Shown one piece after another: positions 17,714 through 46,086 of a stretch of DNA of 64,000 nucleotides. Each line of letters opens with the position of its first letter. Position 1 is the first letter of the stretch. This DNA comes from Chloroflexota bacterium. GTDB taxonomy: Bacteria > Chloroflexota > UBA5177. Under the pieces are notes generated by a model. That model saw only the letters and a program-made list of their open reading frames with translations, had not been told where the DNA came from and made no database searches. The DNA is taken from positions 911 through 64,910 of the forward strand of contig JAICWV010000001.1 in NCBI GenBank assembly GCA_025966365.1. Direction: 5' to 3'. The translations under genes were made by a program, and so were the position numbers.

Positions 17714-18001
17714 CGGACCGAAGTAGCGGTCGGCAACCCGGTTGGTAGCAGGAAGTACGGCTACCCGACTTTTTTTGGGGTAGTCCGAGCGGGGAAGTGC
17801 CAGATTAGGAGCCGCGAAGAGGGTTCGCGGAACGACAAGCCCGATAGAGATAATGCTCGCCGCAAAGACTATTCGTCGGATAAACCTCTCCTCCCCTGCT
17901 CGATGCCATGATACCCAAAAGCGTGACCAGGCCGTAATACCGTGGTACGATGGACTCCTGCGAATCCTGGTGGTTCGGGGAGGAGAATCGAGGTCTCGGA
18001 C

Positions 18002-21871: not shown

Positions 21872-23791
21872 ATGTGTGGCATAGCCGGGATGGTTCTGCG
21901 GCAGCCCGACACCTCGACAGACGTTCGGGAACGGCTCTGCAAGATGACCCACGCGCAGCATCACCGCGGGCCGGACGACGAGGGTGTCTATGTCCTGCCC
22001 TGCGGGCGGGCGGGCCTGGGCAACAACCGCCTCGCGATCCGCGATCTCTCGCCTGCCGGGCATATGCCCATGGGCAACACCGACGGAACCGTCTGGATTA
22101 CCTACAACGGAGAAATCTATAACACCTATGAGGTCCGTCCTCAGCTGGAGGCTCTCGGATATACCTTCCAATCGTCGAGCGACACCGAGGTCATCCTGCA
22201 CGGCTACGAGGCCTGGGGGGAAGACGTGGTGGAGCGCCTCCGCGGCATCTTCGCCTTCGGTATCCTCGATGTGCGTCCGAACGTTGGCGACGGTACCCTC
22301 TTCCTGGCCCGCGATCGTCTCGGCGTCAAGCCGTTGTACTATGCCTTGACCCCAGACAGCCTCCTTTTCGGTTCAGAGATAGGGGCGATCCTGGCAGCGA
22401 GTCCTCGCGGTTGGGTGATCGACCAGACCGCGCTTCGAGCCTATCTCCTGCTGGGCTCCGTTCCCTCTCCCCTGACCATCTATGGGGAAATACGAGCGCT
22501 CGAGCCCGGATGCCTCCTCCGCGTCTCGCTCGACGGCGTGGCCGATTGTCCTCGCCGCTACTGGCCCATGCCCGCTGGAACCGATCAGATCTCGCGAGAC
22601 GAGGCCATCGATCGAACGCGAGCACTGCTCCAGGAGGCTGTCCGCACGCAGCTTGTCAGCGACGCCCCACTGGGCGCGTTCCTCAGCGGCGGTATCGACT
22701 CCAGTGCCGTGGTTTCGCTTATGCGCCGCGGCACCACTGGGACGATCCGGACCTGCTCTATCTCCTTCCGGGAGTCGGAGTTCGATGAGTCGCCGTACGC
22801 GCGAGAGGCAGCGGCCGCGGCGGGCGCGGAGCATGTGGAATACGTGGTGACCGCTGACGACCTGGGGCGCGAGCTTGACGCCGTTCTGGGGGCCATGGAC
22901 CAGCCCACGGTGGATGGCGTCAATACCTATTTTGTATCGCGCGCCGCCCACGAATCCGGACTGACCGTCGCCCTGTCCGGTCTGGGAGGCGACGAATTGT
23001 TCGGCGGCTATGATCCCACATTCCGGGGCGTGCCCCGGCTGATGCAAGCGGTGAGCACGACGCAGTCGATTCCGGGGGCAACCGCTTTATCAGGAGTCGC
23101 GCTTCGGCGCTTCCGGGGCAGCAGATGGCGGAAGCTGGAAGAGGCGATGCAGCGGCCTCCGTCCGCTGCCAGTGCCTACGTCGCCCGCCGCGGTCTCTTC
23201 GCGCCACGCGAGGTGCGGTCTCTGTTGGGGAACAACGTCTCGGGCGTATTTGACCCGGTCGACTACGTGGGCGCGCGAGCCGGTAGCGAGGCAGCCAGCG
23301 ATCTCTTCAGCTGGACCAGCAGGGCGGAGCTGGGTGTCTACACGACGAACCAGCTTCTGCGGGACACCGACGTCATGAGCATGGCCCATTCGCTCGAGGT
23401 GCGGGTTCCGCTGCTGGACGAGCGGCTTGTCGAGGGAGTGCTGCGTCTGCCGGCGTCGGTGAAAGCAGGCGGATCGAAGTCGCTTCTGCTCGCGGCGCTG
23501 GGATCGGACCTGCCCGAAAGCGTTCGCACCCGGAAACAGAAGCAGGGTTTTACCTTCCCCTTCGGTGCATGGCTGCGTGGCCCGCTGCGAGAGCGGGCGC
23601 GCAGCATGGTGCACGACGCCGCGGACGCGTTCAACCTCGACGCGGGCACGGTGAGCAGGGTCTGGTCCGACTTCGAGGCGGGAAAGACGCATTGGTCGCG
23701 GCCGTGGGCGATTCTAGCTCTGCTGGCATGCGCGCAAAGGACAAGCCCTGCCGTGGACGATAAGCCCCCCGCGATCGGAGCCGGGGTATGA
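21872..23791 (+). CDS. asnB: asparagine synthase (glutamine-hydrolysing) family amidotransferase
   Basis: Starts MCGIAG (Ntn Cys2 glutaminase). Synthetase domain with SGGIDSS PP-loop. 639 aa. Confidence 0.85.
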   Translation: MCGIAGMVLRQPDTSTDVRERLCKMTHAQHHRGPDDEGVYVLPCGRAGLGNNRLAIRDLSPAGHMPMGNTDGTVWITYNGEIYNTYEVRPQLEALGYTFQSSSDTEVILHGYEAWGEDVVERLRGIFAFGILDVRPNVGDGTLFLARDRLGVKPLYYALTPDSLLFGSEIGAILAASPRGWVIDQTALRAYLLLGSVPSPLTIYGEIRALEPGCLLRVSLDGVADCPRRYWPMPAGTDQISRDEAIDRTRALLQEAVRTQLVSDAPLGAFLSGGIDSSAVVSLMRRGTTGTIRTCSISFRESEFDESPYAREAAAAAGAEHVEYVVTADDLGRELDAVLGAMDQPTVDGVNTYFVSRAAHESGLTVALSGLGGDELFGGYDPTFRGVPRLMQAVSTTQSIPGATALSGVALRRFRGSRWRKLEEAMQRPPSAASAYVARRGLFAPREVRSLLGNNVSGVFDPVDYVGARAGSEAASDLFSWTSRAELGVYTTNQLLRDTDVMSMAHSLEVRVPLLDERLVEGVLRLPASVKAGGSKSLLLAALGSDLPESVRTRKQKQGFTFPFGAWLRGPLRERARSMVHDAADAFNLDAGTVSRVWSDFEAGKTHWSRPWAILALLACAQRTSPAVDDKPPAIGAGV

Positions 23792-24660
23792 GTGCAGGCG
23801 ACGCCGCGATTCCGCACGAGGAGCGGCGCATGGCCGCCCCGGTTCCCACCGTGCGGATCGAGCCGTCCCACGGATGGGCGGATCTGCGCCTGAGTGACAT
23901 ATGGGAGTACCGCGAGCTGCTGTACTTCCTGGCCTGGCGTGACATCAAGGTGCGGTATAAGCAGACCGCTCTGGGCGCGACCTGGGCAATCCTGCAGCCG
24001 TTTCTGACCATGGTCGTCTTCAGCGTCTTCTTCGGCCACCTTGCCAGGATGCCGTCCGAAGGGGTGCCGTACCCGATCTTCAGCTTCGCGGCGCTGGTGC
24101 CGTGGACCTTCTTTGCCAACGGGCTCACACTGTCGTCGAACAGCCTGGTTGCCAATGCCAACCTCATCTCCAAGGTGTATTTTCCCAGGCTGGTGGTACC
24201 GATCGCCGGAGTCCTCTCCGGCATCGTGGACTTCGGCCTGGCCTTCGTTGTCCTGCTCGGCATGATGGCCTACTATCATGTCGTTCCGACCGTCAACGTC
24301 GTCCTTCTGCCCCTCTTCCTGCTCCTGGCGTTGGTGACGTCGCTCGGAGTCGGCATCTGGCTGGCGGCACTGAATGTCGAGTTCCGGGATGTGCGCTACG
24401 TCGTTCCGTTTCTGGTCCAGATCTGGCTCTTCGCCACGCCGATCGCCTACGCCAGCAGCCTGCTGCACGGTCCCTGGCGGACGCTCTACGGGCTCAACCC
24501 CATGGTGGGCGTGGTCGAAGGGTTCCGCTGGGCACTCCTGGGCACGCGCGTGGATATCGGGCCCTCTGTCGCGATCTCAGCGGTCGTCTCGCTTCTGCTG
24601 CTCATCACCGGCGCCCTCTACTTCCGCCGTATGGAAAGGACCTTTGCCGATGTTGTGTGA
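23788..24660 (+). CDS. wzm: ABC-2 type polysaccharide export permease (Wzm/TagG-like)
   Basis: Six predicted TM helices and ABC-2 family character (ALGATWAILQPF...ISKVYFPR). ATGA overlap with asnB. Confidence 0.8.
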   Translation: MSAGDAAIPHEERRMAAPVPTVRIEPSHGWADLRLSDIWEYRELLYFLAWRDIKVRYKQTALGATWAILQPFLTMVVFSVFFGHLARMPSEGVPYPIFSFAALVPWTFFANGLTLSSNSLVANANLISKVYFPRLVVPIAGVLSGIVDFGLAFVVLLGMMAYYHVVPTVNVVLLPLFLLLALVTSLGVGIWLAALNVEFRDVRYVVPFLVQIWLFATPIAYASSLLHGPWRTLYGLNPMVGVVEGFRWALLGTRVDIGPSVAISAVVSLLLLITGALYFRRMERTFADVV

Positions 24661-24669
24661 GGCGACGCC

Positions 24670-25989
24670 ATGAGCGATGTGGCGATTCAGGCCGAGGGCT
24701 TGAGCAAGCGCTACCGAATCGGGACGGCATCGGGCCCGTACAAAACCCTTCGCGAGTCCCTTATGGCCGCTCCAATGCGTCCGCTTAGCGTGGTGAAGTC
24801 CCGTCTGGGCGGAGCGCGCCCGGAGAGTAAGCGCCAGGAGGAGATCTGGGCGCTCCGGGATGTCTCCTTTGAGGTTCGAGCCGGCGAGGTGCTGGGCATT
24901 ATCGGGCGGAACGGAGCCGGCAAGAGCACTCTGTTGAAAGTGCTCTCGCGCATCACCGAGCCCACCTCGGGCCTGGCAGACGTCCACGGTCGGGTGGGCT
25001 CACTCCTCGAAGTCGGAACCGGCTTCCACCCTGAGCTGACCGGACGTGAGAACATCTTCCTGAACGGCGCCATCCTGGGCATGAAGCGGGCAGAGATCAA
25101 AGCCCGCTTCGACGAGATCGCGGCCTTCGCCGAGATCGAGCAGTTTCTGGACACGCCGGTGAAGCGCTACTCCTCGGGCATGTATATGCGGCTGGCATTC
25201 TCCGTAGCAGCGCATCTCGAACCCGAGATCCTGATTGTGGACGAGGTACTGGCGGTAGGCGACGCCTCGTTCCAGAAGAAGTGCTTGAACAAGATGGAGG
25301 ACGTGGGACGCCAGGGACGCACCGTGATCTTCGTGTCGCACAACATGGCAGCAGTCACGCGGCTGTGTCAGCGCGCAGTTCTTCTCGTCGGAGGCCACGT
25401 GGTTGATGACGGCCCGGCTCATCGAATCGTAAGCAGCTATATGGATGCCGGCATGGGAATAAGCGCGATGCGTGAGTGGCCGGATTGGAGGACGGCGCCC
25501 GGTGACGACGTGGCACGCCTGCGGAGCGTGCGCGTACGCACGGAGGGTGGTCAGACAGTCGAAAGTGTCGATATTCGGCAGCCGGTGCTAATCGAAGTCG
25601 AGTATGTGAATCTCCAGTCCACTCTGCGCCCTACCGCGGTTCTCCACTTCTTTAATGACACCGGCGTCTGCCTCTTCTCCTCAAATGACTTCACGAATCG
25701 CGAGTGGTGGAACGCTCCACGCACGCCGGGAATCGTGCGCGCGACGTGCCGGATCCCCGGTAACTTCCTCGCCGAGGGGAGCATCGCGGTGCTGGCGGCG
25801 ATCAGCAGCTATGAACCACATGTAGTTCACGCACTAGAGCGCGATGCCGTGTCCTTCCAGGTTGTGGATCACAGCACTGGCGACGGGGCCCGCGGGCCCT
25901 ATGGAGGAACCGTTCCGGGGCTCGTTCGCCCGATGCTGGAATGGGACGTGGACGTTGAGCCAGCCGTTCCCAACGCGGCCACCGGATGA
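24670..25989 (+). CDS. wzt: polysaccharide ABC-transporter ATP-binding protein (Wzt-like) with C-terminal glycan-binding extension
   Basis: Walker A GRNGAGKST, ABC signature YSSGM, Walker B ILIVDE. Carries a C-terminal ~190-aa beta-rich extension beyond the NBD, as in O-antigen Wzt proteins. Confidence 0.85.
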   Translation: MSDVAIQAEGLSKRYRIGTASGPYKTLRESLMAAPMRPLSVVKSRLGGARPESKRQEEIWALRDVSFEVRAGEVLGIIGRNGAGKSTLLKVLSRITEPTSGLADVHGRVGSLLEVGTGFHPELTGRENIFLNGAILGMKRAEIKARFDEIAAFAEIEQFLDTPVKRYSSGMYMRLAFSVAAHLEPEILIVDEVLAVGDASFQKKCLNKMEDVGRQGRTVIFVSHNMAAVTRLCQRAVLLVGGHVVDDGPAHRIVSSYMDAGMGISAMREWPDWRTAPGDDVARLRSVRVRTEGGQTVESVDIRQPVLIEVEYVNLQSTLRPTAVLHFFNDTGVCLFSSNDFTNREWWNAPRTPGIVRATCRIPGNFLAEGSIAVLAAISSYEPHVVHALERDAVSFQVVDHSTGDGARGPYGGTVPGLVRPMLEWDVDVEPAVPNAATG

Positions 25990-26975
25990 GCGAGCGAATT
26001 GTGACTCATGATCGATTGGTCGGTGTCGCCTCGCGCCTGCTCCCTCCTGCAACCTACGAATCGGTGAGGGAGATCTACCACCACATGCGACATGCACACG
26101 AGCGCGCCAACTCCGTTTACGCTCGTCTTGTCGATTTATCGACCGGTCGAATGGAACTGTTAAGCCTGATGAGTGCGGTTACGCGTTTGTTCCTATCCCT
26201 GGCTCGCACCTCTGAGTCGGGCCGCAAGGATGTAACCCTTCGACTTGGCGGCGGCGTCTATGTGGTGGACCTGTCGCTGATGGAGGCAGAGACCCTGGCG
26301 GAGCTGTACGTTGACCGTCATCACGATCGAATAGATCGCTTTATCCCGCAAGAGGGCTGGAATGTGGTCGATATCGGTGCCAACGTCGGTATGTACGCGG
26401 TGATGCAAAGCAAGCGGGGCGCGAAGGTCTACGCGTTTGAGGCCAATCCGGAATGCTACGGACGTCTACTCAAGACCGTACGCGCTAACCGACTGAGGAC
26501 CCGTGTCGCCGCGTGGAATCAGGCAATCGGGGGCGCACCAGGCTGGGGTGTGGTGACCGCTCCCTATGGCGGACGTGGAACGCCCGCGGGCTTCGTTACG
26601 GCTCTTGAAGGTCCCTCGGAGGACACCAATGCGGTCAGTGTCAAACCGCTCGATTCCATTGAGGAACTGAGGGGAATCGAGCGGATTCACCTACTGAAGG
26701 TCGATGTCGAAGGCGCCGAAGTTGAGGTGCTCCGTGGTGCTCGGCTGATCCTGACGCGGGTAGAACGCATCGTCATCGAATATCACTCTCCTACATTGGA
26801 CGAGCAGGTGACCCAGCTGCTGACGGGGAGCGGTTTCTCTACCGTGACCCGCGTAGACGTCCTCCCGGAGCAGCACGTGGGCCTGATCTATGCCGAGCGC
26901 AGCGTCGGCGAGCGTACGACGCTCAATCAGTCTCAGTCTGACGTTGGCCCAGAGGGAGCGCAGCAGCCAGCATGA
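25986..26975 (+). CDS. FkbM-family SAM-dependent methyltransferase
   Basis: VVDIGANVGMYA SAM-binding motif and FkbM-type pattern ...KVDVEGAE.... ATGA overlap with wzt. Confidence 0.75.
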   Translation: MSERIVTHDRLVGVASRLLPPATYESVREIYHHMRHAHERANSVYARLVDLSTGRMELLSLMSAVTRLFLSLARTSESGRKDVTLRLGGGVYVVDLSLMEAETLAELYVDRHHDRIDRFIPQEGWNVVDIGANVGMYAVMQSKRGAKVYAFEANPECYGRLLKTVRANRLRTRVAAWNQAIGGAPGWGVVTAPYGGRGTPAGFVTALEGPSEDTNAVSVKPLDSIEELRGIERIHLLKVDVEGAEVEVLRGARLILTRVERIVIEYHSPTLDEQVTQLLTGSGFSTVTRVDVLPEQHVGLIYAERSVGERTTLNQSQSDVGPEGAQQPA

Positions 26976-28351
26976 CGGGTTATGGTCAGGGCCTGGCCAC
27001 CGGGCGTCGTGTATATGACGAAGGTAGGCAAGCCGAGGAGCCATCCGGAACCCGCCCGGACCGATTGGCGGGCGAAGGATTTCCACGTGTCTCTTACGAC
27101 ATATCGCTGCTTGGGCGATGGCACGTAAACAATCGAACGGGCATCTTTCGTGTTGTGGAGGAAACTCTCATTGCCTTGGTCGAGCAGAACGAGTGTGACC
27201 TGGTTCTGACCAGTACTGCGTCAGTTCGAGCCGCGCGGCAGTGCCTTGAGTACTTGCGAACTGTCCCCTCACTCGCTCATCTCCCGTTTGTGCGGAGCGA
27301 GTCGGCACTTCGTGTTTCGGCGATACTGCAGACGGGCCTCGATTACCCACGTGTTTCCTCTGAACACTCTATCCCGGTGAAGGTCTTCCACAAACCGCTC
27401 TGGTGGGCGGCGAAGCTAAATCAGAGATATGCGGACTGGCGCGACGCGCGGACCTCGCGCCGCCTCGATATCTTTCACTCTCCCTTCTATCCCCTGCCCA
27501 GGCCGAGACGGACTGGCGGGGCGCAGCGATATCTGACCGTCTACGACCTGATACCGCTCCGTTTTCCGCAGTTCTGCGGAGTGGGAGCAGTCAACGATCA
27601 CACCTCTATCCTGCAGAGCCTGCGTCCGTCAGATTGGGCTATTTGTATCTCACAGGCAACGAAGGACGACCTTTGTGCCTACACGTCGCGTGATCCGGCA
27701 CGCACTTTTGTCGTTCCCCTGGCGGCGTCCCGGGATGTCTTCCATCCAGTCGGAGATGCAGCCACGATAAGGACGGTGGCACAGCGGTACGGCATTCCCG
27801 ATGCCCCGTACATCCTGAGCCTGAACACGCTCGAGCCCCGGAAGAATATTGACCTGGCAATTCGCTCGTTCAGTCAGATGGTGCGGCAGGAGGGTATCAA
27901 AGAACTTCACTTCGTTCTCGTGGGCTACCGAGGCTGGATGTATGACAAGATTTTCGAGGCAATTGGACAATCCGGCCTGAGCCCTGACCGATTCATCGTC
28001 ACGGGGTACGTCCCCGACCAAGATCTGGCAGCCATCTATGGCGGCGCGATTTCATTTGTCTTTCCCTCCTTCTACGAGGGCTTTGGACTCCCTGTTCTGG
28101 AGGCAATGCAGTGCGGAACCCCGGTTCTCTCCTCCAACACATCCTCGCTGCCGGAAGTGGCCGGCGATGCTGCTATCCTTCTCGATCCGCACGATGCGGA
28201 TGGATGGTCGCAGGGCATGCTCGATCTCTATCGCAGTGCCGACCTCAGAGCTAGCATGAGCGCCCGGTCGCGAGAACGCGCGTCGTGCTTCAGTTGGAAA
28301 AGAACTGCTCAGGAGACCTTGAACGCCTACAGAGTTGCGACGGCCGGATAG
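26972..28351 (+). CDS. glycosyltransferase family 4 (GT-B)
   Basis: C-terminal EX7E region: FPSFYEGFGLPVLEAMQCGTPVLSS. Confidence 0.8.
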   Translation: MTGYGQGLATGRRVYDEGRQAEEPSGTRPDRLAGEGFPRVSYDISLLGRWHVNNRTGIFRVVEETLIALVEQNECDLVLTSTASVRAARQCLEYLRTVPSLAHLPFVRSESALRVSAILQTGLDYPRVSSEHSIPVKVFHKPLWWAAKLNQRYADWRDARTSRRLDIFHSPFYPLPRPRRTGGAQRYLTVYDLIPLRFPQFCGVGAVNDHTSILQSLRPSDWAICISQATKDDLCAYTSRDPARTFVVPLAASRDVFHPVGDAATIRTVAQRYGIPDAPYILSLNTLEPRKNIDLAIRSFSQMVRQEGIKELHFVLVGYRGWMYDKIFEAIGQSGLSPDRFIVTGYVPDQDLAAIYGGAISFVFPSFYEGFGLPVLEAMQCGTPVLSSNTSSLPEVAGDAAILLDPHDADGWSQGMLDLYRSADLRASMSARSRERASCFSWKRTAQETLNAYRVATAG

Positions 28352-28359
28352 GAAGTCGC

Positions 28360-29604
28360 TTGCGTAGCCCTGTTTCGACCCCAACTCTGGATCAGCGCAT
28401 CATCGTTGTGACCAGGCACTCTCCTACACCGACGGGACACGGCGGCAATCATCGGAGTTATCAGATCCTATCGGACGTGCGCGGACTCGCTGATGCGAGG
28501 GTAGAAAGCTTCTGTCTTGACGACTGGGAGCGAGATCATCCCTCAGCCCATAACTCCCATCCGCGCGACCCCCTCAGCCGAGTGCGGGCCAGCGTTCGCT
28601 ATCGTTGGGATCGCATCTCTCGCAACCCCTTCTGGCTCCTTGGGCCCACTAATTTCACCACAGCACCTGGACTACCCGACTCCTTCGTTCACGAGTACTA
28701 CGAGGTGGCGGCAGCCCAGCCTGTGCCTGCCGCCTGTGTCATGGACCATACACTCTTCGGCGCTCTCCACGCTATCAACCATGAGCTCAAGGTCCCCACG
28801 ATTCTCTGTCCTCAGAACATCGATTCACTCTCCCAGAATTTGCCGCTCCTTGCACCCGAGTTCCGAACGAGCCGGTGGAGGGCATATGCCGGTGTAACCG
28901 ATCTCATAAGTGAGCTCGACGCCTTTCGTAGCTATGACGATCTCCACCTCATTTCCCGGGTTGAGTCGAGCATAGTCGCATCGCTCGGCCTCCAATCGTC
29001 CTACTACCCCTACGTGCCGGTGGCTGAGATACGACAACGGCTCCTCTCTATCCGCGGGCAGAGGGTTTCCGGAAAGAGCGTCGAGCCCGGTCTGCTGGTC
29101 GCCATGGGGAGTGCCCGCCACTACCCAACCCGGAAGTCCCTGGAGTGGTTCCTGCGGGGTATCCATCAATCGGGTTTCCCTGAGGGCGTCACGCTCGAGA
29201 TAGTCGGCCACGACACCGACACGCTCGCCGGAAGCGAGGACGTCCCGGATGGCATCAGGCTGCGCGGGTGGCTCGGTCAGGACGAACTCGACGACCTGCT
29301 CATGCATGCGCATGCGGTGTTGATTCCACAGGTCCTGGGCTTTGGAACCCTTACGCGACTGCCCGAGTTGGCCTGCGCAGGTATTCCCGTACTTGTCACG
29401 CCGTATCCAACATACGCTCTCGATCCTCCTCCCAATATCACCACCGTTGAAAGCGACCCGAAGGCATGGTTTGCCGCCATGGACGCAATGGCACGATCCA
29501 ACGCCACATTGGTGGGTGGTTACGAAGAGTGGGAGAGCCGTCAGCCGTCCACCCTCACGAACTCCCTCCGCACCTACCTGTCGAGCCGAGCTGCATATGC
29601 CTAG
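28360..29604 (+). CDS. putative divergent GT-B-fold glycosyltransferase (start uncertain; TTG 28360 or GTG 28408)
   Basis: N-terminal RIIVVTRHSPTPTGHGGN and C-terminal LPELACAGIPVLVTP resemble the halves of GT-B enzymes. No clear EX7E motif. Confidence 0.4.
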   Translation: MRSPVSTPTLDQRIIVVTRHSPTPTGHGGNHRSYQILSDVRGLADARVESFCLDDWERDHPSAHNSHPRDPLSRVRASVRYRWDRISRNPFWLLGPTNFTTAPGLPDSFVHEYYEVAAAQPVPAACVMDHTLFGALHAINHELKVPTILCPQNIDSLSQNLPLLAPEFRTSRWRAYAGVTDLISELDAFRSYDDLHLISRVESSIVASLGLQSSYYPYVPVAEIRQRLLSIRGQRVSGKSVEPGLLVAMGSARHYPTRKSLEWFLRGIHQSGFPEGVTLEIVGHDTDTLAGSEDVPDGIRLRGWLGQDELDDLLMHAHAVLIPQVLGFGTLTRLPELACAGIPVLVTPYPTYALDPPPNITTVESDPKAWFAAMDAMARSNATLVGGYEEWESRQPSTLTNSLRTYLSSRAAYA

Positions 29605-34180: not shown

Positions 34181-34182
34181 GC

Positions 34183-37987: not shown

Positions 37988-39488
37988 CTACTCAATCCCT
38001 CGCTCGTACCCTGTTCCCAAGGAGCGTGTCGCCCCGAGGCATCTCTCGCTCTACATGCTCTGTCTGCCGCCGATCCTGATCACCGCCGTCTTATGGCTGA
38101 CGCGCCTCAACAACGTGTCGATCATGGATGTCGTCGCCGCCTTCGTCCTCGCCATCGTTCCTTGGTGGTCGTACCTGCGCTGGCGCCGCGACGCTACGGC
38201 GTTCGTGCCCCTCCTTGCGGCCATCACGCTAGTCTACTGGGTCTACTTCGCAGTGACGCTGTTCTGGGGTACGCTTTCCGTTCAACTCGCCTTTGTGCGC
38301 GTCCCCATTGCTCCAAACACCATCACGCAGACCATGGTTATGGCTGCCGGCGGCGTACTTGCTCTTGCCGCCGGCAAGCAGATTCGATTCGGATCCCGTC
38401 TTCGCCTGACGAGTCGTCTCGATGTATCCGCGGATCCGGCTGGCTGGACCTACCTTCGCGTCATCTTTCTTCCCCTCACCATCCTCGGGTTCGTGCCCGT
38501 CGTTGCCGGATTAGGAGGTGGGTCCGGCCGCGAGATCGTACAAGACATCTTCCAGATCGTGCCCCTGGTGATCTGCTTCCTCCTTCTGGAACGGATATTC
38601 TCCGGCGGCTCGCGTCAGCTGGATAAGCTGCTCGTCATCGTGTACCTGATTCTGACCTCCGTCTTTGGCGTGGCCAGCGGAGCTATTGCGCCCTGGCTCT
38701 TTGTCGCCATCGGTGTGCTCCTCGTCTACATCGGGGTAAAGCGCCGTATGCCGCTCCTGCCCGTCGTTCTGGTTGCGGTCGTCTTTCTCTTCTTTCAGCC
38801 GGGCAAGGATGCGTTTCGCAGCGCTTACGTCTACAGCAGTGGGGGGCAGCAGGTGTCTGCCGGAATCCTGACCCGCGCTCACGCCTGGCTGACGCTGTCG
38901 ATTGACGCCTGGTCCGGAGCTTTTTCCGGGCAGAGCGGGCTGGCACCCCTCGATCTTGTCCGCACGACCATCGACCGCGCCTCTCTCCTCACCACCGACG
39001 CGCACGTGATCGATTACACCCCCTCCATCGTCCCGTATCAGGACGGCAGCACCTATGCCTACCTGCCGGTCAGCTTCGTCCCGCGCTTCCTCTGGCCCGA
39101 TAAGCCCTCCATCAACGACGCCAACCACTTCTACGAGACCGCGTACGGCGTGACCAACGCCCAGGAGAACCACAACAACGTCTCCATCTCCGTCGGCTCC
39201 CTCGCCGAGGGCTACATGAACTTCGGCTGGGTTGGGGCAATCCTGGTCATGTTCTTTCTGGGCATCCTCTTCGATTGGGTCGAGACCACCTTCCTCGCGC
39301 GCGACTCCGGTTTCCTCTTCACCGCCTTCGGCATCGTCATGGTTCTCCAGTTTCTCCTGATCGAGTCGCAGATGAGTGTCTACCTGAGCGGCATCATCCA
39401 GAAGGCCCTGATCGTCGGCATCGTGCTCCTTCCCGCCTGGCGTGGGCAAAGGCGGACTGAACGGATGGGGAGGATCGAACCTGTCTGA
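37977..39488 (+). CDS. polytopic membrane protein, O-antigen polymerase/ligase (Wzy/WaaL)-like
   Basis: About 10-12 predicted TM helices with a large extracytoplasmic loop (…YQDGSTYAYLPVSFVPRFLWPDKPS…), the architecture of Wzy/WaaL-type enzymes. ATG overlaps the upstream stop. Confidence 0.55.
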   Translation: MQTDYSIPRSYPVPKERVAPRHLSLYMLCLPPILITAVLWLTRLNNVSIMDVVAAFVLAIVPWWSYLRWRRDATAFVPLLAAITLVYWVYFAVTLFWGTLSVQLAFVRVPIAPNTITQTMVMAAGGVLALAAGKQIRFGSRLRLTSRLDVSADPAGWTYLRVIFLPLTILGFVPVVAGLGGGSGREIVQDIFQIVPLVICFLLLERIFSGGSRQLDKLLVIVYLILTSVFGVASGAIAPWLFVAIGVLLVYIGVKRRMPLLPVVLVAVVFLFFQPGKDAFRSAYVYSSGGQQVSAGILTRAHAWLTLSIDAWSGAFSGQSGLAPLDLVRTTIDRASLLTTDAHVIDYTPSIVPYQDGSTYAYLPVSFVPRFLWPDKPSINDANHFYETAYGVTNAQENHNNVSISVGSLAEGYMNFGWVGAILVMFFLGILFDWVETTFLARDSGFLFTAFGIVMVLQFLLIESQMSVYLSGIIQKALIVGIVLLPAWRGQRRTERMGRIEPV

Positions 39489-40599
39489 GTCGCGGGGTTC
39501 GTCAGCCGCCGCCTTACCCATCGGCCCGATCTATCACCTCGCACCGGAACTCAATCACCGGGCTAGCGGGATCGCTCATCACGCACGCCTGGTCCATCGT
39601 GCCCTCGCCGAGCGCGGCGAGGCTGTGACCACGATCGCTCTGCTCGATCAACCCGGGCACCCCGCGGGCGACCAGTCCATTGCCTGCGGCGGCAGTCGCG
39701 TTCGCTTTATCGCCCACACTCTTGCAGCGGCTCTCCGGCGTCCCGAGCTGATCCTGGTCGAACACCTCGCGCTTGCTCCGCTCGGCTGGATCGCCGCTCG
39801 CCTGGCCGGAGCTCGCCTGGTCGTCTTTCTGCATGGGATCGAAGCCTGGAAGCCGGCCGGACGCCTGGAGCGCTGGGCACTTCACCGCGCCGATTGTCTC
39901 CTTGCCGTGAGCCGGACCACTGCCCGGCGGGCCGCGGCAGCCGCCAACGCGCCGCCGGACCGTACCCATGTGCTGCACAACTGTCTGGATCCGGACTTTG
40001 CCGTCACGGACGCTCCACGCCGGCAAAGTACCTCCCTCTCACTTCTCACCGTCTCTCGCATACGGGCCTCCGAGAGCTACAAGGGCCACGATCTCGTCAT
40101 CCACGTCCTCCCCCATCTTCTGCCGGATTTCCCCGACCTGTGCTACGACATCGTCGGCGATGGCGACGGGCGTCCATCCCTCGAGCGGCTCGTGGCCGAC
40201 CTGGGGCTCCAGTCCCGCGTCCATTTTCATGGCGAAGTCCCTGACTCCGCGCTGGAGGAGTTCTACCGGAACGCTTCGCTCTTCGTCATGCCCAGTGCGG
40301 GGGAAGGCTTCGGCTATGTCTTTCTGGAGGCAATGGCTTCCGGACTACCGGTCGTGGCCGCCCACTCGGACGCCACGGGGGAGGTTGTCCGGGACGGAGT
40401 GACCGGTGTGCTCGTCGAACGCGATGAAGAGCATCTCCTATCTGCGCTCTCCGCCCTCCTGGGCGACAGTGAGCGCCTCCGCCGTATGTCCCTGGCCGCC
40501 CGCGAGCACGTGGCATCGTCGTTCGGTTTCGCGGACTTCCAGGCCGCCCTCCTGTCCCACCTCGGTCCGGAACCTCCGGAACAGCCCGGTCATCACTAG
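39442..40599 (+). CDS. glycosyltransferase family 4 (start uncertain)
   Basis: MPSAGEGFGYVFLEAMASGLPVVAA. The N-terminal region overlaps the upstream gene by 47 nt. Confidence 0.7.
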   Translation: MGKGGLNGWGGSNLSESRGSSAAALPIGPIYHLAPELNHRASGIAHHARLVHRALAERGEAVTTIALLDQPGHPAGDQSIACGGSRVRFIAHTLAAALRRPELILVEHLALAPLGWIAARLAGARLVVFLHGIEAWKPAGRLERWALHRADCLLAVSRTTARRAAAAANAPPDRTHVLHNCLDPDFAVTDAPRRQSTSLSLLTVSRIRASESYKGHDLVIHVLPHLLPDFPDLCYDIVGDGDGRPSLERLVADLGLQSRVHFHGEVPDSALEEFYRNASLFVMPSAGEGFGYVFLEAMASGLPVVAAHSDATGEVVRDGVTGVLVERDEEHLLSALSALLGDSERLRRMSLAAREHVASSFGFADFQAALLSHLGPEPPEQPGHH

Positions 40600-40606
40600 T
40601 TCGCCG

Positions 40607-41782
40607 ATGCGAGTCCTCCACGTTATCCCATCGCTCGGACCGCAGCGGGGCGGCCCCAGCTATATCTTGCCGCTCCTCGCCCGGAGCCTCCAGCAATCGG
40701 GAGTTGCCGTCGAGATTGCGACCACCGACGATGACGGCTCTGAGCGGCTAAGCGTCCCGCCCGGCTACCCCGTTCTATTCGAGGGGGTGACGACCCATTT
40801 CTTCTCACGGCAGGCCCACTTCTACACTTTCTCACTCCCGCTCGCAGCCTGGCTCTGGACCCATATCGCCGCCTACGACCTCGTCCACATCCACGCTCTC
40901 TTTTCTTTCGCAGCGCTCCCGGCGGCCCTCGGCGCTCAGCGCCGGAATGTCCCGTATATCGTCCGGCCTCTCGGCACGCTGAACCACTACGGCCGCGAAC
41001 AGCGGCGTCCCCAACTCAAGCGCGTCTCCTACCGCTTCATCGAGCACCCTATCCTGGAGCACGCGGCTGCCATCCACTACACCAGCGAGCAAGAGCGTGC
41101 GGAGGCCGCTGATCTCCGGTTGAGTCGGCCGTCCGCCGTTATCCCTCTCGGCATCGACCTTTCGTCCTTTGACGCCCTACCGTCGCCTGAATCGTTTCTG
41201 ACCCGCCATCCCGAGCTTCGCTCCCGCCCCACCGTGCTCTTCCTCTCGCGCATCGATCCCAAGAAGGGGCTCGATCTCCTCCTCCCCGCCTTTGCCGATG
41301 CAGCCCCGTCCGACGCGGCCCTGGTCATCGCCGGGCGCGGCAATGAGGAGTACACCGCTGCACTCCGGCGCCAATCAGCCGATCTCGGTATTACCGACCG
41401 TATCACCTGGACCGGACACCTGAGCGGCGAGCAGAAGCTGGCGGCGTTCGCCGCCGCAACCGTTTTCGTGCTTCCGTCGTACTCTGAAAACTTCGGCATC
41501 GCTGCCGTCGAAGCACTGGCCGCCGGGACTCCCACCATCGTCTCCACCGGCGTTGCCGTCGCCTCTGACATCCGCAGCCACGATGCGGGCGTGGTCGTCG
41601 GACCCAACACCACCGATCTCGCGGAGGGACTTCGCCGTCTGCTATCGTCCGAGTCCCTCCGCGCCGGGGTGTCCCGGCGCGGCCGGGACCTGGCGCGCGA
41701 CAATTTCTCGATGCAGACAGCCGCCGAGAGGACACGCGACCTGTATCGTGGGATTCTGTCCGGCGGAGGGCTGACAGCATGA
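40607..41782 (+). CDS. glycosyltransferase family 4
   Basis: N-terminus MRVLHVIPSLGPQRGGP. LPSYSENFGIAAVEALAAGTPTIVS. Confidence 0.8.
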   Translation: MRVLHVIPSLGPQRGGPSYILPLLARSLQQSGVAVEIATTDDDGSERLSVPPGYPVLFEGVTTHFFSRQAHFYTFSLPLAAWLWTHIAAYDLVHIHALFSFAALPAALGAQRRNVPYIVRPLGTLNHYGREQRRPQLKRVSYRFIEHPILEHAAAIHYTSEQERAEAADLRLSRPSAVIPLGIDLSSFDALPSPESFLTRHPELRSRPTVLFLSRIDPKKGLDLLLPAFADAAPSDAALVIAGRGNEEYTAALRRQSADLGITDRITWTGHLSGEQKLAAFAAATVFVLPSYSENFGIAAVEALAAGTPTIVSTGVAVASDIRSHDAGVVVGPNTTDLAEGLRRLLSSESLRAGVSRRGRDLARDNFSMQTAAERTRDLYRGILSGGGLTA

Positions 41783-42684
41783 CCGGCCCCGGGGATCGCA
41801 CGCCGATCAGTGTGATCGTCCTCACCTTTAATGAGGCCGCCAATATTGCGACCTGCCTGGAGAGCGTGGCCGGCTGGGCCGGCGAGATTTTCATCGTGGA
41901 CTCGGGAAGTACCGACCAGACCACCGAGATTGCCCGGCGGTACACCGACCAGATTGTCACTCACCCCTTCGTCAACCAGTCGCAGCAGTTCAACTGGGCA
42001 CTCGACCACCTTCCCATCCACATGCCCTGGGTGATGAGACTCGACGCCGACGAATTTTTGCTGCCCGAGCTACGTGAGGAGATTGCTCGGGTTCTGCCGG
42101 CTCTGGCCGCTGAGGTGACCGGTGTCATGATGAAGCGGCGCGTCTACTTTCAAGGCCGCTGGATACGGCATGGGGGATACTACCCGACGTGGCTCCTGCG
42201 CCTCTTCCGCCGCGGATTCGCCCGGAGCGAGGAGCTGGCGATGGATGAGCACATTGTTGTCTTGAGCGGCAAGACCATTGAGCTTCAGCATGACTTCGTC
42301 GACTTCAATCACATGAGCCTGGCTGAGTGGCTGGCAAAGCACGCGCGCTACGCTGCGCGTGAGGCATCGGTTGCAGAGTCGGGTACGGAGAGCACCTATT
42401 CGGCTCGTCTTACCTCGCAGCCGGCCCGCAAACGGTGGCTCAAGAACCACGTGTACCGGCGTTTCCCACCGTTCTTCCGTGCCCTCCTGTTCTTCCTGTA
42501 CCGGTATATCCTGCGGGCGGGGTTTCTGGACGGCCCGCAGGGTCTCATCTTCCACGTCCTCCAGGGCTTCTGGTACCGCTTCTACGTTGATGCGCTCGTC
42601 TGGGAGGCCCATCGCAGCGCCAGTGTCGATGGGAATCCGGTACCCGGGGAGACTGGCGGCAGCGGGCCCGGTGCATTCTCCTGA
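41779..42684 (+). CDS. glycosyltransferase family 2
   Basis: ISVIVLTFNEAANI...IVDSGSTD...LDADE motifs. ATGA overlap with the upstream gene. Confidence 0.75.
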   Translation: MTGPGDRTPISVIVLTFNEAANIATCLESVAGWAGEIFIVDSGSTDQTTEIARRYTDQIVTHPFVNQSQQFNWALDHLPIHMPWVMRLDADEFLLPELREEIARVLPALAAEVTGVMMKRRVYFQGRWIRHGGYYPTWLLRLFRRGFARSEELAMDEHIVVLSGKTIELQHDFVDFNHMSLAEWLAKHARYAAREASVAESGTESTYSARLTSQPARKRWLKNHVYRRFPPFFRALLFFLYRYILRAGFLDGPQGLIFHVLQGFWYRFYVDALVWEAHRSASVDGNPVPGETGGSGPGAFS

Positions 42685-42803
42685 CAAGGGAAGCAGGGTG
42701 TGGCCGCCGGATCGTGGGCCGCGCTATGCTCTACCCATACCATCGCACATGTGAATGCGTGGCCAACAGCACCGTGACCACGCGGCGCTAGAAAGACGTT
42801 GCC

Positions 42804-44528
42804 TTGCACATTCTCGGGATCAACGCCTACCACGGCGGCGCCTCGGCCTGCCTTATTCGTGACGGCCAATTAGTCGCTGCCGTCGAGGAAGAGCGATTCA
42901 GCCGGGTCAAGTACCAGGCCGGGTTCCCGGTTGAAGCGATTCGCTGGGTGCTCGCCGAGGGCGGTATTGCGCCTCCGGATCTCGATCATATCGGGATTAG
43001 CCGCAAGCCTACCGCCAATCTGGTGAAGAAAGCGCTCTTCGCCTTCCAGCGCCGCCCGTCGGTTGGCCTGATCCGGGATCGACTGAACAACAGCATGAAG
43101 GTCGCCGATCTCAAGTCGGCCTTTTGTGAGGGGCTGGGCGTGGACGCCGCCTCGCTGCACGCCGAGTTCCACAACGTGGAGCACCACCGCGCCCACATGG
43201 CCAGCGCCTTCTTCGTTTCCCCCTTCCGTGAGGCCGCCATCCTCTCGGTGGACGGCATGGGCGACTTCGTCAGCACCATGTGGGGGACGGGTTGTGACAC
43301 AGAGATGCAGGTGCTTGGCGAGGTCAACTTCCCCCACTCCCTCGGCCTCTTCTACACCGCCGTCACTCAGTGGCTGGGATTCCCGAAGTATGGAGACGAG
43401 GGCAAGGTCATGGGCCTGGCCCCGCTTGGTCGCCCGGCGCACATGGACAAGATGGAGAAGCTGGTACGTGAACAGCGCGACGGCACCTTCGAGCTGAACC
43501 TGGACTACTTCGTTCACCATGCCGAGGGCGCGACCATGACCTGGAACGAAGCGGAGCCCAAGCTCGGCGCCATCTTCTCCGGCGAGTTCGTCAAGCTCTT
43601 TGGCGAGCCACGTGTTCCACGGAGCGACATCACCGAGTACCACGAGGACGTTGCAGCCTCTCTGCAGGTCATGCTGGAGCAGGTGGAGTTGCAGCTCGTG
43701 CGGAAACTGCAGCGAGTGACCGGCCAGAAGGCGCTCTGCATGGCGGGTGGGGTGGCGCTCAACAGCGCCTTCAACGGAAAAATACTGCCCTGCACCGACT
43801 TCGAGGACATCTACATCCAGCCCGCGGCCGGCGATGCAGGGACGTCCCTTGGCGTCTGCTACTACATCTATCACCAGCTCCTGGGCCGGCCTCGTACCTA
43901 CGTCATGAACGACGCCTATACCGGGCCGCGGTACTCGCCTGATGCCATCGAGGCTGCGCTCCAGAACGCGGGTCTCTTATATGAGCAACTGGAGGAGGAG
44001 GACCTCACCGCGCGGGCAGCGGAGATCGTGGCCGGCGGTAACGTGTTGGGCTGGTTCCAGGGACGGCTGGAATGGGGGCCCCGTGCACTCGGGAATCGCA
44101 GCATCATCGCCGATCCGCGGCGACAGGATATGAAGGCCATCCTCAACGCCCGCATCAAGCACCGCGAGCCGTTCCGTCCCTTCGCTCCGTCGGTTCTCAT
44201 GGAGCACGTGGGTGAATACTTCGACCAGACGTATCCCGACCCCTTCATGATCAAGGTCTATAACGTCCTCGAGGAAAAACAGCCGGTCATTCCCGCCGTC
44301 ACCCATGTGGACGGCACTGGCCGCCTGCAGACCGTTGATCAGGAGCACTCACCGCTCTACTGGAAGCTGATCAACGCCTTCAAGGAACGCACGGGCGTTC
44401 CCATCGTCCTCAACACCAGCTTCAACGAGAATGAGCCGATTGTGTGCACTCCCGAGGAGGCAATCGCGGTACTCCAGCGCACCAAGATGGATGCGTTGGC
44501 GATCGGGAATTACCTGGTACTCACGTAG
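42804..44528 (+). CDS. carbamoyltransferase (NodU/CmcH family)
   Basis: N-terminal Kae1/HypF-like domain (ILGINAYHGGASACL, HHRAHMASAF) and C-terminal carbamoyltransferase domain (RALGNRSI..DPR). TTG start. Confidence 0.8.
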   Translation: MHILGINAYHGGASACLIRDGQLVAAVEEERFSRVKYQAGFPVEAIRWVLAEGGIAPPDLDHIGISRKPTANLVKKALFAFQRRPSVGLIRDRLNNSMKVADLKSAFCEGLGVDAASLHAEFHNVEHHRAHMASAFFVSPFREAAILSVDGMGDFVSTMWGTGCDTEMQVLGEVNFPHSLGLFYTAVTQWLGFPKYGDEGKVMGLAPLGRPAHMDKMEKLVREQRDGTFELNLDYFVHHAEGATMTWNEAEPKLGAIFSGEFVKLFGEPRVPRSDITEYHEDVAASLQVMLEQVELQLVRKLQRVTGQKALCMAGGVALNSAFNGKILPCTDFEDIYIQPAAGDAGTSLGVCYYIYHQLLGRPRTYVMNDAYTGPRYSPDAIEAALQNAGLLYEQLEEEDLTARAAEIVAGGNVLGWFQGRLEWGPRALGNRSIIADPRRQDMKAILNARIKHREPFRPFAPSVLMEHVGEYFDQTYPDPFMIKVYNVLEEKQPVIPAVTHVDGTGRLQTVDQEHSPLYWKLINAFKERTGVPIVLNTSFNENEPIVCTPEEAIAVLQRTKMDALAIGNYLVLT

Positions 44529-44538
44529 CCGGCCGCGG

Positions 44539-44697
44539 TCAGGACCCGAGAGCGGCGTACAGGCATTGCACGATGACGATGATCACCAGGGAAGCTGCCG
44601 ATACAGCGATGAGGGCGGATCCAAGACGCAGCTGCAGGGACTCTGCCGGAATCACCGCGGTTCGTCCTGGAGCCAGATCCGTAAACGTGCGTGCCAT
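44539..44697 (-). CDS. candidate small membrane protein (52 aa)
   Basis: Reads MARTFTDLAPGRTAVIPAESLQLRLGSALIAVSAASLVIIVIVQCLYAALGS with one TM helix. GGAAAGGGG lies ~8 nt upstream of the ATG. Sits in a 290-bp AT-richer gap, antisense to nothing. Tentative. Confidence 0.3.
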   Translation of the reverse strand: MARTFTDLAPGRTAVIPAESLQLRLGSALIAVSAASLVIIVIVQCLYAALGS

Positions 44698-44817
44698 GAC
44701 AGATGCCCCTTTCCGTGTGTCTTGTCTGGCTATATTGGACCACTCATTCGTGCTCAGCAGTAGGGTCGTCGTGCCTGCTCTCGGAGAGACCATGGTCATG
44801 GCAGGAGATGTTGCTCC

Positions 44818-46086
44818 ATGATCCGCCGCACCACGCCACGCCACATCGTCTTTCTCTCGCTGGACTTCTATCCTGACGATCAGGCAGTCAGCCAGCTCTT
44901 CACCGACCTCCTCCTGGCCGTGCGCCGCGACATGCCCTATGTCAGGATCACGGTCCTGTGCGGATTCCCCATGCAGACAGCGGCCGGCGCTGGAGAGCCT
45001 ATCCCGCGGCGAGAGAGCTTGAATGGTATAGAAATCCGGCGTTGCGGTATCCGCGTGCGGGACAAGAGCACACTCATCCGTCGCGCGACACTCTACGCCT
45101 CGTTTTTGCTCCACGCCGGATGGGAATTGCTTTGGTTGGGCCGAGGAAGCCTGGTCTTCGGCGTCACCAGTCCGCCATTCGGGGCGCATCTCCTCTGGCT
45201 TACCTCGTGGCTGGCGCGCTTCCCCTACCAATACATGTTCCTGGACATCTATCCCGAAGCGCTCGTTGCGCTTGGCCGACTGAAGCCGAACGCTTTTCTG
45301 ACCCGCTGCTGGATGTTTCTCAACCATCTGAGCTACCGCCGCGCGTCGAAGCTTGCTGTGCTCGGACGCGATATGATCCCCCTCCTCCAGCACCACTACG
45401 AGATCGCTCCCGGTCGGATCACCTACATTCCACACTGGAGCGCGTCTGAGGTCGAGTGCCCGAGCCTCTTCACGGAAAACAGATTGGCACGGCGGCTGGG
45501 TCTGGAGGATAAATTCGTCGTCCAGTACTCCGGCAATATGGGTCTGCTGCACGATATCGACACGCTGGTCCGTGCCGCCGACCTCCTGAAGAACACTCCG
45601 AACATCCACTTCCTCTTCATCGGCAAGGGACGCAGACGGGCAACGGCCGAGCGGCTCGCGCGCGAGCTCGATCTTCCCAATATCACCTGGCTGGATTTCG
45701 TGCCGCGTGAGCGACTGCATGAGACGCTCTCTTGCTGCCGGGTGGCACTGGTCTCGCTGCGCCAGGGCATGGAAGGCGTGGCCGTCCCCAGCAAGCTTTA
45801 CGGCATCCTGGCTTCGGGCCGCACCGTGGTGGCACAGGTTCCCCATGGGTCCGAGATCGCGTGCGTGGTCGAGGAAGAAGGCTGCGGCGTGGTGGTCGAG
45901 CCGGGAGACGCGGCCGGACTGGCCGAGGTCCTACGAATGCTGGCGTCGAGCCCGGAGCAAACCGAACTCATGGGCGCCAACGCCTTCGAAGCCTACCGCG
46001 CAACGTACACGCTGGAGCAGGCAGTCACCGCCTTCGAAGAACTCTGGGGACTCCGGAAAACCGGACTGCTCAGCTCAGCCGGATAG
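44818..46086 (+). CDS. glycosyltransferase family 4
   Basis: GT-B fold. C-terminal donor-binding region (…VPSKLYGILASGRTVVA…) as in WbuB-like GT4 enzymes. Confidence 0.7.
   Translation: MIRRTTPRHIVFLSLDFYPDDQAVSQLFTDLLLAVRRDMPYVRITVLCGFPMQTAAGAGEPIPRRESLNGIEIRRCGIRVRDKSTLIRRATLYASFLLHAGWELLWLGRGSLVFGVTSPPFGAHLLWLTSWLARFPYQYMFLDIYPEALVALGRLKPNAFLTRCWMFLNHLSYRRASKLAVLGRDMIPLLQHHYEIAPGRITYIPHWSASEVECPSLFTENRLARRLGLEDKFVVQYSGNMGLLHDIDTLVRAADLLKNTPNIHFLFIGKGRRRATAERLARELDLPNITWLDFVPRERLHETLSCCRVALVSLRQGMEGVAVPSKLYGILASGRTVVAQVPHGSEIACVVEEEGCGVVVEPGDAAGLAEVLRMLASSPEQTELMGANAFEAYRATYTLEQAVTAFEELWGLRKTGLLSSAG

Follow-up and report, generated by a model that had tools for sequence, protein, structure and literature searches.

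The routes of bacterial polysaccharide assembly are usually classed as Wzx/Wzy-, ABC-transporter-, synthase- or sucrase-dependent, and uncharacterised clusters of the Wzx/Wzy or ABC type make up 62–96% of the exopolysaccharide (EPS) clusters predicted in environmental genomes (bioRxiv 10.64898/2025.12.21.693542). In the S-layer system of Geobacillus and Paenibacillus alvei the oligosaccharyltransferase WsaB/WsfB carries a Wzy_C domain (PMC2943079), and in the single-membrane bacterium Lactococcus one operon yields both an ABC-exported rhamnan and a polymerised side polymer (PMC10821137). Here we describe a ~24-kb glycan-assembly operon from an uncultured soil Chloroflexota bacterium, located in a stretch of 64,000 nt (the window) whose contig of ~70 kb was covered to its ends. 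The locus is best read as a member of a widespread, uncharacterised family of Wzy-type EPS or capsule-like loci, and we find no support for protein glycosylation. More specifically, the operon would assemble a heteropolysaccharide of complex, decorated structure, carried on polyprenyl diphosphate, as a Wzy-type EPS or capsule-like locus with Wzm/Wzt export, a reading that we regard as about evenly balanced between right and wrong.

The operon (21872–46086) is an unbroken train of 19 genes on the plus strand in the list of open reading frames (ORFs) and in the translations with their start contexts, and the genes called independently for the public record agree with it. In that record the window corresponds to contig JAICMP010000001 of GCA_025929235.1. 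The co-directional train described in an earlier note on this DNA is therefore real. That note had counted twenty genes in 23788–46086, where we find 18; its asnB does belong to the operon, carrying Asn_synthase and GATase_7 domains, but lies outside that span as the first gene. The asnB-like stop overlaps the wzm start by 4 nt (ATGA), so that the operon begins at 21872. Overlaps are present at 12 of the 18 junctions (−4 nt at eight, and −1, −8, −11 and −47 nt at one each), four further junctions are gaps of at most 9 nt, and the larger gaps measure 56, 119 and 289 nt. A leader of 381 nt precedes asnB and 561 nt follow the last gene. A succession of 19 same-strand genes with coupled stops and starts is well beyond chance, and it places wzm, wzt and fkbM in translational coupling with the genes for the glycosyltransferases.

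The Wzm/Wzt exporter, the methyltransferase and the carbamoyltransferase named earlier are all present (Table 1). The best NCBIfam match of Wzm is the galactan/O-antigen Wzm, and the protein is 60–62% identical to the Wzm proteins of two related loci, L013 and L030. Wzt carries a C-terminal carbohydrate-binding domain (Wzt_C, PF14524) at residues 278–403, with 35.3 bits against a cut-off of 30.4; its best PDB matches are the ABC-transporter chains 8dku, 7k2t and 6an5 (E 6e-68), which we take to be the Aquifex O-antigen Wzm-Wzt transporter. The gene that overlaps the wzt stop encodes an FkbM-family protein matching the FkbM structure 2py6; it is predicted to O-methylate a sugar, and the methyl group it adds is possibly the cap read by Wzt. 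In L007, the closest relative, fkbM genes are scattered among the glycosyltransferase genes. The AsnB-like glutamine amidotransferase exceeds the cut-off of TIGR01536 (427 bits, cut-off 267) and falls under that of the XrtA/PEP-CTERM amidotransferase model (432 bits, cut-off 817), and we infer that it amidates a sugar carboxylate.

In the middle of the operon, and translationally coupled, lies the gene for a 503-aa membrane protein whose only Pfam match is to O-ag_pol_Wzy (PF14296). It also aligns, under the respective cut-offs, with the oligosaccharide repeat unit polymerase model TIGR04370 (25.8 bits, cut-off 40) and with the XrtY-associated Wzy-like model (35 bits, cut-off 420). No match to Wzy_C (PF04932, O-antigen ligase) was obtained at E ≤ 0.01, profile–profile comparison by hhalign with the true Wzy_C proteins of related loci showed no similarity (probability 0.2%), and no sequence relative is found in the PDB. 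An AlphaFold2 model built from 12 sequences (predicted local distance difference test score, pLDDT, 77; predicted TM-score, pTM, 0.79) contains 12 transmembrane helices. The positive-inside rule puts both termini in the cytoplasm (17 Lys/Arg in the inside loops versus 2 in the short outside loops), and an acidic 121-residue loop (residues 287–407) is modelled as facing outward. Most of the invariant residues lie in or beside this loop (R281, R334, P349, P353, G357, Y360 and a PRFLWPDKPS motif), which carries invariant Arg and Lys motifs; no histidine is invariant in the family. A Foldseek search of the model against the PDB gave nothing significant, the O-antigen ligase WaaL (7tpg) being the sole plausible match (probability 0.77, TM-score 0.28–0.33). 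The folds nearest to that of the model are those of FtsW and RodA, which are SEDS polymerases, and Wzy proteins are classed with SEDS (PMC12004945). The predicted fold places the protein in the SEDS/Wzy/WaaL superfamily, and the sequence signals point to Wzy over WaaL, so that of the earlier label "Wzy/WaaL-like" the Wzy half is favoured and the WaaL half, for want of a Wzy_C match, is not. We infer that the protein is an extracytoplasmic polymerase, for which the coexistence of a separate ligase-type Wzy_C protein in related loci also argues.

To place the locus among its relatives, all window proteins were compared with the ORFs of the 80 related loci that were kept, each with 10 kb on either side. 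A pattern scan of 185,579 species genomes yielded at least 422 relatives of the Wzy-like protein, nearly all from metagenome-assembled genomes (MAGs) of Acidobacteriota, the best relative (43% identity) coming from a Chloroflexota MAG. An exhaustive hidden Markov model (HMM) search gave 1089 clusters of relatives at 50% identity (E ≤ 1e-30). A word-indexed search with 12 relatives had hinted, wrongly, that the protein was rare, and was corrected by the genome scan and the full HMM search. The neighbouring genes recur in the order unk2-unk3-GT4e-[Wzy-like]-GT4f-GT4g-GT2b-carbamoyltransferase-GT4h, often with asnB (Table 1), with median identities of 51% for unk3 (across phyla), 52% for GT4e and 53% for the carbamoyltransferase; in 43 of 69 loci GT4e is the gene immediately upstream of the Wzy-like gene, in the same orientation. 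Proteins with PMT_2 or GT87 domains occur only in some related loci.

A bacterial tyrosine kinase (BY-kinase) is encoded within 10 kb of this module in 9 of the 80 loci, directly adjacent in several, and a bona fide Wzy_C protein in 8, mostly right after GT4h. In the acidobacterial loci L035, L051, L056, L063 and L064 the Wzy_C gene stands directly 3′ of GT4h (~17.3–19.0 kb in the locus), and several of the five have a BY-kinase and asnB at the 5′ end, followed in L035 and L064 by Wzx. BY-kinase, asnB, Wzx, module and Wzy_C together amount to a full EPS locus type that is conserved but uncharacterised. In the window itself, a Wzz-domain/BY-kinase fusion (co-polymerase and tyrosine autokinase) has its Walker motifs (A, A′ and B) intact and ends in a YYYEY cluster, its Wzz-domain match being weak. 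A CpsB-type phosphatase encoded upstream of the operon is a probable regulatory partner. The candidate primer has WecA as its best NCBIfam match (95 bits, under the cut-off), and an NxxNxxDGxDG motif can be read in its sequence.

The module occurs together with Wzt in 6 of the 80 loci, and with the metagenome locus L004 and this window the number rises to 8, among them a second Chloroflexota locus (MAG DATGJB01) at 43–52% identity. A methyltransferase, of the FkbM or of the rhamnosyl-O-methyltransferase/CmcI type, adjoins Wzt in this window and in L004, L011, L013 and L070. A MOP-family Wzx flippase lies within 10 kb of the module in only 3 of the 80 loci (L035, L064 and L085). Locus L013 runs BY-kinase, Wzm, Wzt, methyltransferase, GT2, GT4, unk2, and L064 runs BY-kinase, asnB, Wzx, unk2; Wzm/Wzt, the methyltransferase and two glycosyltransferases thus fill the interval between BY-kinase and unk2 that is taken by asnB and Wzx in L064. 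In the window we found no Wzx flippase, either in a scan for transmembrane proteins or with an HMM built from the Wzx proteins of related loci, and the rest of the contig has none. Among window ORFs of at least 200 aa, only Wzm, the Wzy-like protein, a MauE-thioredoxin protein, the BY-kinase and the WecA-type protein have three or more predicted transmembrane helices. Among the outcomes that the earlier note had set against its own reading is a Wzy polymerase with its flippase elsewhere; the polymerase half of this largely agrees with what we see, and no Wzx was found on the contig.

These distributions bear on whether the operon is a conventional Wzx/Wzy EPS locus whose flippase is encoded elsewhere, with Wzm/Wzt and the methyltransferase serving an unrelated or minor glycan or representing a recent insertion. 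With Wzx near the module in so few loci, a distant flippase would be normal for the family, and BY-kinase, CpsB and the Wzy-like protein are hallmarks of the Wzy pathway. This explanation is nevertheless improbable in our view, since wzm and wzt stand in translational coupling with asnB on one side and the glycosyltransferase genes on the other, the pairing of Wzt with the module recurs in at least 8 loci including the second Chloroflexota, and Wzt retains its substrate-binding domain.

The operon encodes 12 cytoplasmic glycosyltransferases, ten of GT-B/GT4 type and two of GT2, with unk1 as a possible thirteenth, in keeping with the ~13 proposed earlier. Pfam and NCBIfam detect eight GT4 and two GT2 enzymes directly, and the count reaches 12 because two of the three Pfam-negative ORFs, unk2 and unk3, resolve as GT-B glycosyltransferases. 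The unk2 profile (26 homologs) matches the GT4 enzymes HepE/Alr3699 and PimA (E 2e-5 to 1e-3). For unk3 at least 1160 homologs were found, most with the GT4 N-terminal domain PF13579, and its AlphaFold2 model (pLDDT 91.7) matches MshA, GlgM, BshA and PimA in Foldseek (E 1e-14 to 1e-11). The third, unk1, has no Pfam, NCBIfam or PDB match. The nearest NCBIfam models of the set are those of the EPS enzymes HpsP, XrtY-associated glycosyltransferase and WcaI, in each case under the cut-off: GT4g scores 273 bits with HpsP (cut-off 550) and 205 bits with the XrtY-associated XYAG1 (cut-off 400), and GT4h 140 bits with the WcaI subfamily model (cut-off 276). A role for GT2b in making a polyprenyl-phosphate-sugar for external glycosylation was rejected, the protein having weak N-terminal matches only and no GT-C partner.

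The genes at the 5′ end (unk1, fkbM and GT4a) are poorly shared with related loci (Table 1). The G+C content is ~64% overall and falls to 58–60% across fkbM, GT4a and unk1 (positions 25000–29500 of the window, flanked by ~64–66%). Because this lower G+C content coincides with the operon genes least common to related loci, it suggests that this part of the operon is a variable segment subject to horizontal exchange.

The same division between a 3′ module kept across phyla and variable 5′ genes, partly in lower-GC DNA, would be expected if one operon made two glycans in the lactococcal dual-chain style. The 5′ half (Wzm, Wzt, FkbM, GT4a, unk1, GT2a and GT4b–d) would then produce a methyl-capped chain, completed in the cytoplasm before its export through Wzm/Wzt. 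The 3′ half would produce repeat units polymerised by the Wzy-like protein, the chains being joined or displayed separately. Twelve to thirteen glycosyltransferases would suit two chains. We consider this arrangement unlikely, because the Wzx-type flippase and the GT-C transferase of the lactococcal system (WpsG and WpsJ; PMC10821137) are absent from the window and the rest of the contig, no rml genes are found in the window, and in L030 the conserved module follows directly after Wzm/Wzt with only one extra glycosyltransferase.

The earlier note had favoured the O-glycosylation of an S-layer or other surface protein after the Geobacillus Wsa model, in which a methyl-capped glycan exported through Wzm/Wzt is transferred by the membrane protein acting as an oligosaccharyltransferase. 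The Wzm, domain-bearing Wzt and coupled methyltransferase do mirror wzm-wzt-wsaE, and the asnB homologue wsfA occurs in P. alvei (PMC2943079); the membrane protein shares its broad fold class with the WaaL/PglL ligases, with the WaaL match in Foldseek described above, and the neighbourhood has genes for a sortase and for secreted proteins rich in Ser, Thr and Pro. For the locus as a whole this logic finds no support. The membrane protein lacks a Wzy_C domain, profile similarity to Wzy_C and an invariant histidine, and sister loci encode a separate Wzy_C protein beside it. Within the window, no Wzy_C protein was recovered by Pfam, by the transmembrane scan or with HMMs from the Wzy_C proteins of related loci, and no Bac_transf match indicative of a WbaP-type (PHPT) primer was obtained among the ORFs scanned, the only primer candidate being of the PNPT type (PF00953). 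No large window ORF matched an rml gene or an SLH/S-layer gene, S-layer proteins being diverse and the secreted 581-aa protein at 50588–52333 having no family match. The link to a BY-kinase, seen here and, immediately beside the module, in related loci, speaks for control of polymerisation. We regard surface-protein glycosylation as very unlikely.

Two further readings were rejected. An exosortase/PEP-CTERM EPS system disagrees with the lack of an exosortase among the window ORFs scanned and with scores that all lie under the cut-offs. A lipopolysaccharide (LPS) O-antigen does not suit a Chloroflexota host, a group that to our knowledge generally lacks LPS, and no WaaL is present in the window. 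The aconitase agrees with this host, since every homolog of it with an organism name at 66–75% identity belongs to Chloroflexota. A GT-C transferase was likewise absent from the window and the rest of the contig, and neither an LCP ligase nor an outer-membrane exporter was seen in the window.

According to the favoured reading of a Wzy-type locus with Wzm/Wzt export, a WecA-type enzyme would prime the lipid carrier, and the glycosyltransferases would assemble a large lipid-linked block at the cytoplasmic face, which would be O-methylated, O-carbamoylated and possibly amidated. Recognition by the Wzt domain of a decoration at the terminus, in all probability the methylated residue, would let Wzm/Wzt carry the block across the membrane, a step presumably performed in some sister loci by a Wzx flippase instead. 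Outside the membrane the Wzy-like protein would link the blocks into a polymer under the control of the BY-kinase and the CpsB phosphatase, and the product would be a capsule, an exopolysaccharide or a wall-associated glycan. A bolder form of the proposal is that Wzm/Wzt with a cap-reading domain replaces Wzx and delivers methyl-tagged, lipid-linked blocks to a BY-kinase-controlled Wzy, as a recurrent fourth route in soil Chloroflexota and Acidobacteriota; we hold this extension to be tentative and rather doubtful.

Several points weigh against the favoured reading. Canonical ABC-dependent pathways polymerise in the cytoplasm and have no need of Wzy, and canonical Wzy pathways use Wzx, which could be encoded elsewhere in the genome, beyond the ~70-kb contig. 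The exchange of Wzx for Wzt rests on few loci, because most of the 80 have neither within 10 kb. The Pfam match of the Wzy-like protein is marginal (27.2 bits against a cut-off of 26.6, over 57 residues), and the modelled fold does not discriminate between polymerase and ligase. For a single repeat unit, 12–13 glycosyltransferases is a high number, which fits two glycans equally well. The BY-kinase and the WecA-type primer lie 14.5 kb downstream of the operon, with unrelated genes between. Across the whole family the reading is drawn from genes and models.

Table 1 Features of the window, with the number of related loci (of 80) that encode a homolog.
Feature	Position	Strand	Evidence or remark	Loci with homolog
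299-aa protein with Thr/Pro/Ala-rich linker	16814–17713	−		
GGDEF-EAL gene	17942–19423		Upstream of operon	
CpsB-type PHP tyrosine phosphatase	19430–20215	+	PF19567, 164 bits; 1.7 kb upstream of operon	
Secreted transglutaminase-like gene	20282 to ~21439	−	Divergent from glycan operon	
c-di-GMP-I-GGC riboswitch (RF03167)	21482–21557	−	71 bits against gathering score 59, E 8e-15	
AsnB-like glutamine amidotransferase	21872–23791	+	Asn_synthase, GATase_7; first operon gene	45
Wzm, ABC-2 permease	23788–24660	+	ABC2_membrane PF01061, 67 bits	
Wzt, ABC ATPase with C-terminal carbohydrate-binding domain	24670–25989	+	ABC_tran, Wzt_C	
FkbM-family methyltransferase	25986–26975	+	PF05050, 75.7 bits; TIGR01444, 104 bits	4
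GT4a	26972–28351	+	Glycos_transf_1, 106.7 bits; in 58–60% GC stretch	21
unk1, possibly 13th glycosyltransferase	28360–29604	+	Start 28360, 28408 or 28741; called as gene in public records	0
GT2a	29597–30565	+	Glycos_transf_2, 104.5 bits	
GT4b	30562–31884	+	Glycos_transf_1, Glyco_transf_4	
GT4c	31881–33161	+	Glyco_trans_1_4, Glycos_transf_1	
GT4d	33161–34180	+	Glycos_transf_1, Glyco_transf_4	
unk2, divergent GT4-like	34183–35457	+	No Pfam match; profile comparison; conserved module	41
unk3, GT-B fold	35454–36785	+	No direct Pfam match; homologs and structure model; conserved module	43
GT4e, upstream partner of membrane protein	36782–37987	+	Pfam GT4	64
Wzy-like membrane protein	37977–39488	+	12 transmembrane helices, 503 aa	
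GT4f	39442–40599	+	Glycos_transf_1, 120.6 bits	59
GT4g, HpsP/XYAG1-like	40607–41782	+	Pfam GT4	58
GT2b	41779–42684	+	Glycos_transf_2, 57.8 bits	29
NodU/CmcH-family O-carbamoyltransferase	42804–44528	+	Carbam_trans_N, 198 bits; Carbam_trans_C, 235 bits	33
~55-aa single-helix ORF	~44539–44700	−		
GT4h, WcaI family	44818–46086	+	Pfam GT4; last gene of train	26
104-aa ORF, uncalled	46089–46403	−		
STAND-type regulator	46648–49431	+	927 aa	
PQQ-like β-propeller protein	49446–50573			
Secreted Ser/Thr/Asp/Pro-rich protein	50588–52333	−	581 aa	
DUF4012 protein	52652–54634	−	660 aa	
Sortase-NHL fusion	54628–56169	−	513 aa	
PqqD-domain protein	56222–56923	+		
MauE/DoxX-thioredoxin fusion	57136–58698	+		
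P-loop protein	58671–59585	+		
NTP_transf_5 nucleotidyltransferase	59468–60532	+		
Wzz-domain/BY-kinase fusion	60657–62294	+	TIGR01007, 177.5 bits against cut-off 108	
WecA/MraY-family polyprenyl-phosphate HexNAc-1-P transferase, candidate primer	62538–63650	+	PF00953, 117.7 bits	

The neighbourhood of the operon has features of cyclic di-GMP signalling, namely the GGDEF-EAL gene and the c-di-GMP-I riboswitch, which forms the 5′ leader of the divergent transglutaminase-like gene. Further upstream, a protein of 299 aa contains a long linker rich in Thr, Pro and Ala (PPPPPRSTATPEPLATATVAASDTPTPTLSATPQATATATAVPPTATPYPSSTPTDTPVP) and has no family match; such linkers are often O-glycosylated in Gram-positive-type bacteria. 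Inside the operon, the 289-nt gap between the carbamoyltransferase and GT4h holds on the opposite strand an ORF of ~55 aa with a single helix (MARTFTDLAPGR...VIIVIVQCLYAALGS). Facing the 3′ end of the operon is an uncalled 104-aa ORF with a signal peptide and a Pro/Thr-rich composition, ending in ...SSLPSTGGAAR, which is LPXTG-like and lacks a hydrophobic tail; it may encode a glycoprotein or a substrate for sortase, or be spurious.

Directly 3′ of the operon, the STAND-type regulator combines a weak adenylate/guanylate cyclase domain with NB-ARC/AAA and TPR regions, and is followed by the PQQ-like β-propeller protein. On the opposite strand, a sortase domain is fused to an NHL-repeat β-propeller in a gene that overlaps the start of the DUF4012 gene, and the secreted Ser/Thr/Asp/Pro-rich protein, which has no family match, adjoins this pair. 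The genes at 56222–60532 form a set resembling those for ribosomally synthesised and post-translationally modified peptides (RiPP), comprising the PqqD-domain protein with a Cys-rich C-terminal tail, the MauE/DoxX-thioredoxin fusion, the P-loop protein without family match and the nucleotidyltransferase. The 4–6 kb of contig beyond the window encode a hybrid kinase/LuxR regulator and a glycoside hydrolase.

Because uncharacterised clusters dominate environmental genomes, a large EPS operon is ordinary in itself. Less ordinary are the repeated occurrence of a domain-bearing Wzt and a methyltransferase alongside a Wzy-type polymerase and a BY-kinase, and the span of the conserved module over two phyla with different envelope types, in hundreds of genomes of Acidobacteriota and Chloroflexota from soil that are uncultured. 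A single gene set, here and in at least seven related loci, unites a substrate-recognising Wzm/Wzt with a polymerase of the Wzy type and sometimes also with a BY-kinase. If the exporter feeds the polymerase, the locus would be a hybrid of two routes that textbooks treat as alternatives, and the module would be the marker of a widespread soil exopolysaccharide of unknown chemistry, with a bearing on aggregation and carbon storage. If it does not, the locus would simply join the uncharacterised EPS clusters that are usual in environmental genomes.

Compared with described systems, the locus differs from XrtA/XrtY loci in having no exosortase and in scores under the cut-offs for the amidotransferase (432 versus 817), Wzy (35 versus 420) and XYAG1 (205 versus 400). 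It resembles the lactococcal rhamnan and PSP cluster (PMC10821137) as a co-directional operon of a single-membrane bacterium with an ABC exporter and a repeat-unit polymerase, but no Wzx-type flippase, GT-C transferase, rml or LCP gene was found here and the enzymes are unrelated in sequence. With the slg clusters of Geobacillus stearothermophilus and P. alvei (PMC2943079) it shares a tightly overlapping wzm-wzt-methyltransferase order, a glycosyltransferase set and an asnB homologue; a Wzy_C oligosaccharyltransferase, a WbaP-type primer, rml genes and an adjacent S-layer gene are missing, and a BY-kinase and CpsB are present instead.

ABC-dependent O-polysaccharide systems, of the E. coli O8/O9a type or with the Aquifex Wzm-Wzt, likewise have Wzm, Wzt_C, an adjacent methyltransferase and a WecA-type primer nearby. 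Those systems have no Wzy and no BY-kinase and ligate their product to lipid A-core through WaaL, whereas here a Wzy-like gene stands mid-operon and a BY-kinase is linked. The remaining comparison is with BY-kinase-controlled Wzx/Wzy loci, namely those for Gram-positive cps, colanic acid and the cyanobacterial hormogonium polysaccharide (hps), and the XrtY-associated loci of NCBIfam. Unlike these, the present locus has Wzm/Wzt in the operon and no Wzx on the contig, and no exosortase, LCP ligase or outer-membrane exporter was seen. Like them, it has a Wzy-type candidate and many GT4 and GT2 enzymes, together with a BY-kinase/co-polymerase, a CpsB phosphatase and a phosphoglycosyl primer, the kinase and phosphatase lying outside the operon here, and its enzymes score best, all under the equivalog cut-offs, against HpsP, the XrtY-associated GT1, the XrtY-associated Wzy and WcaI.

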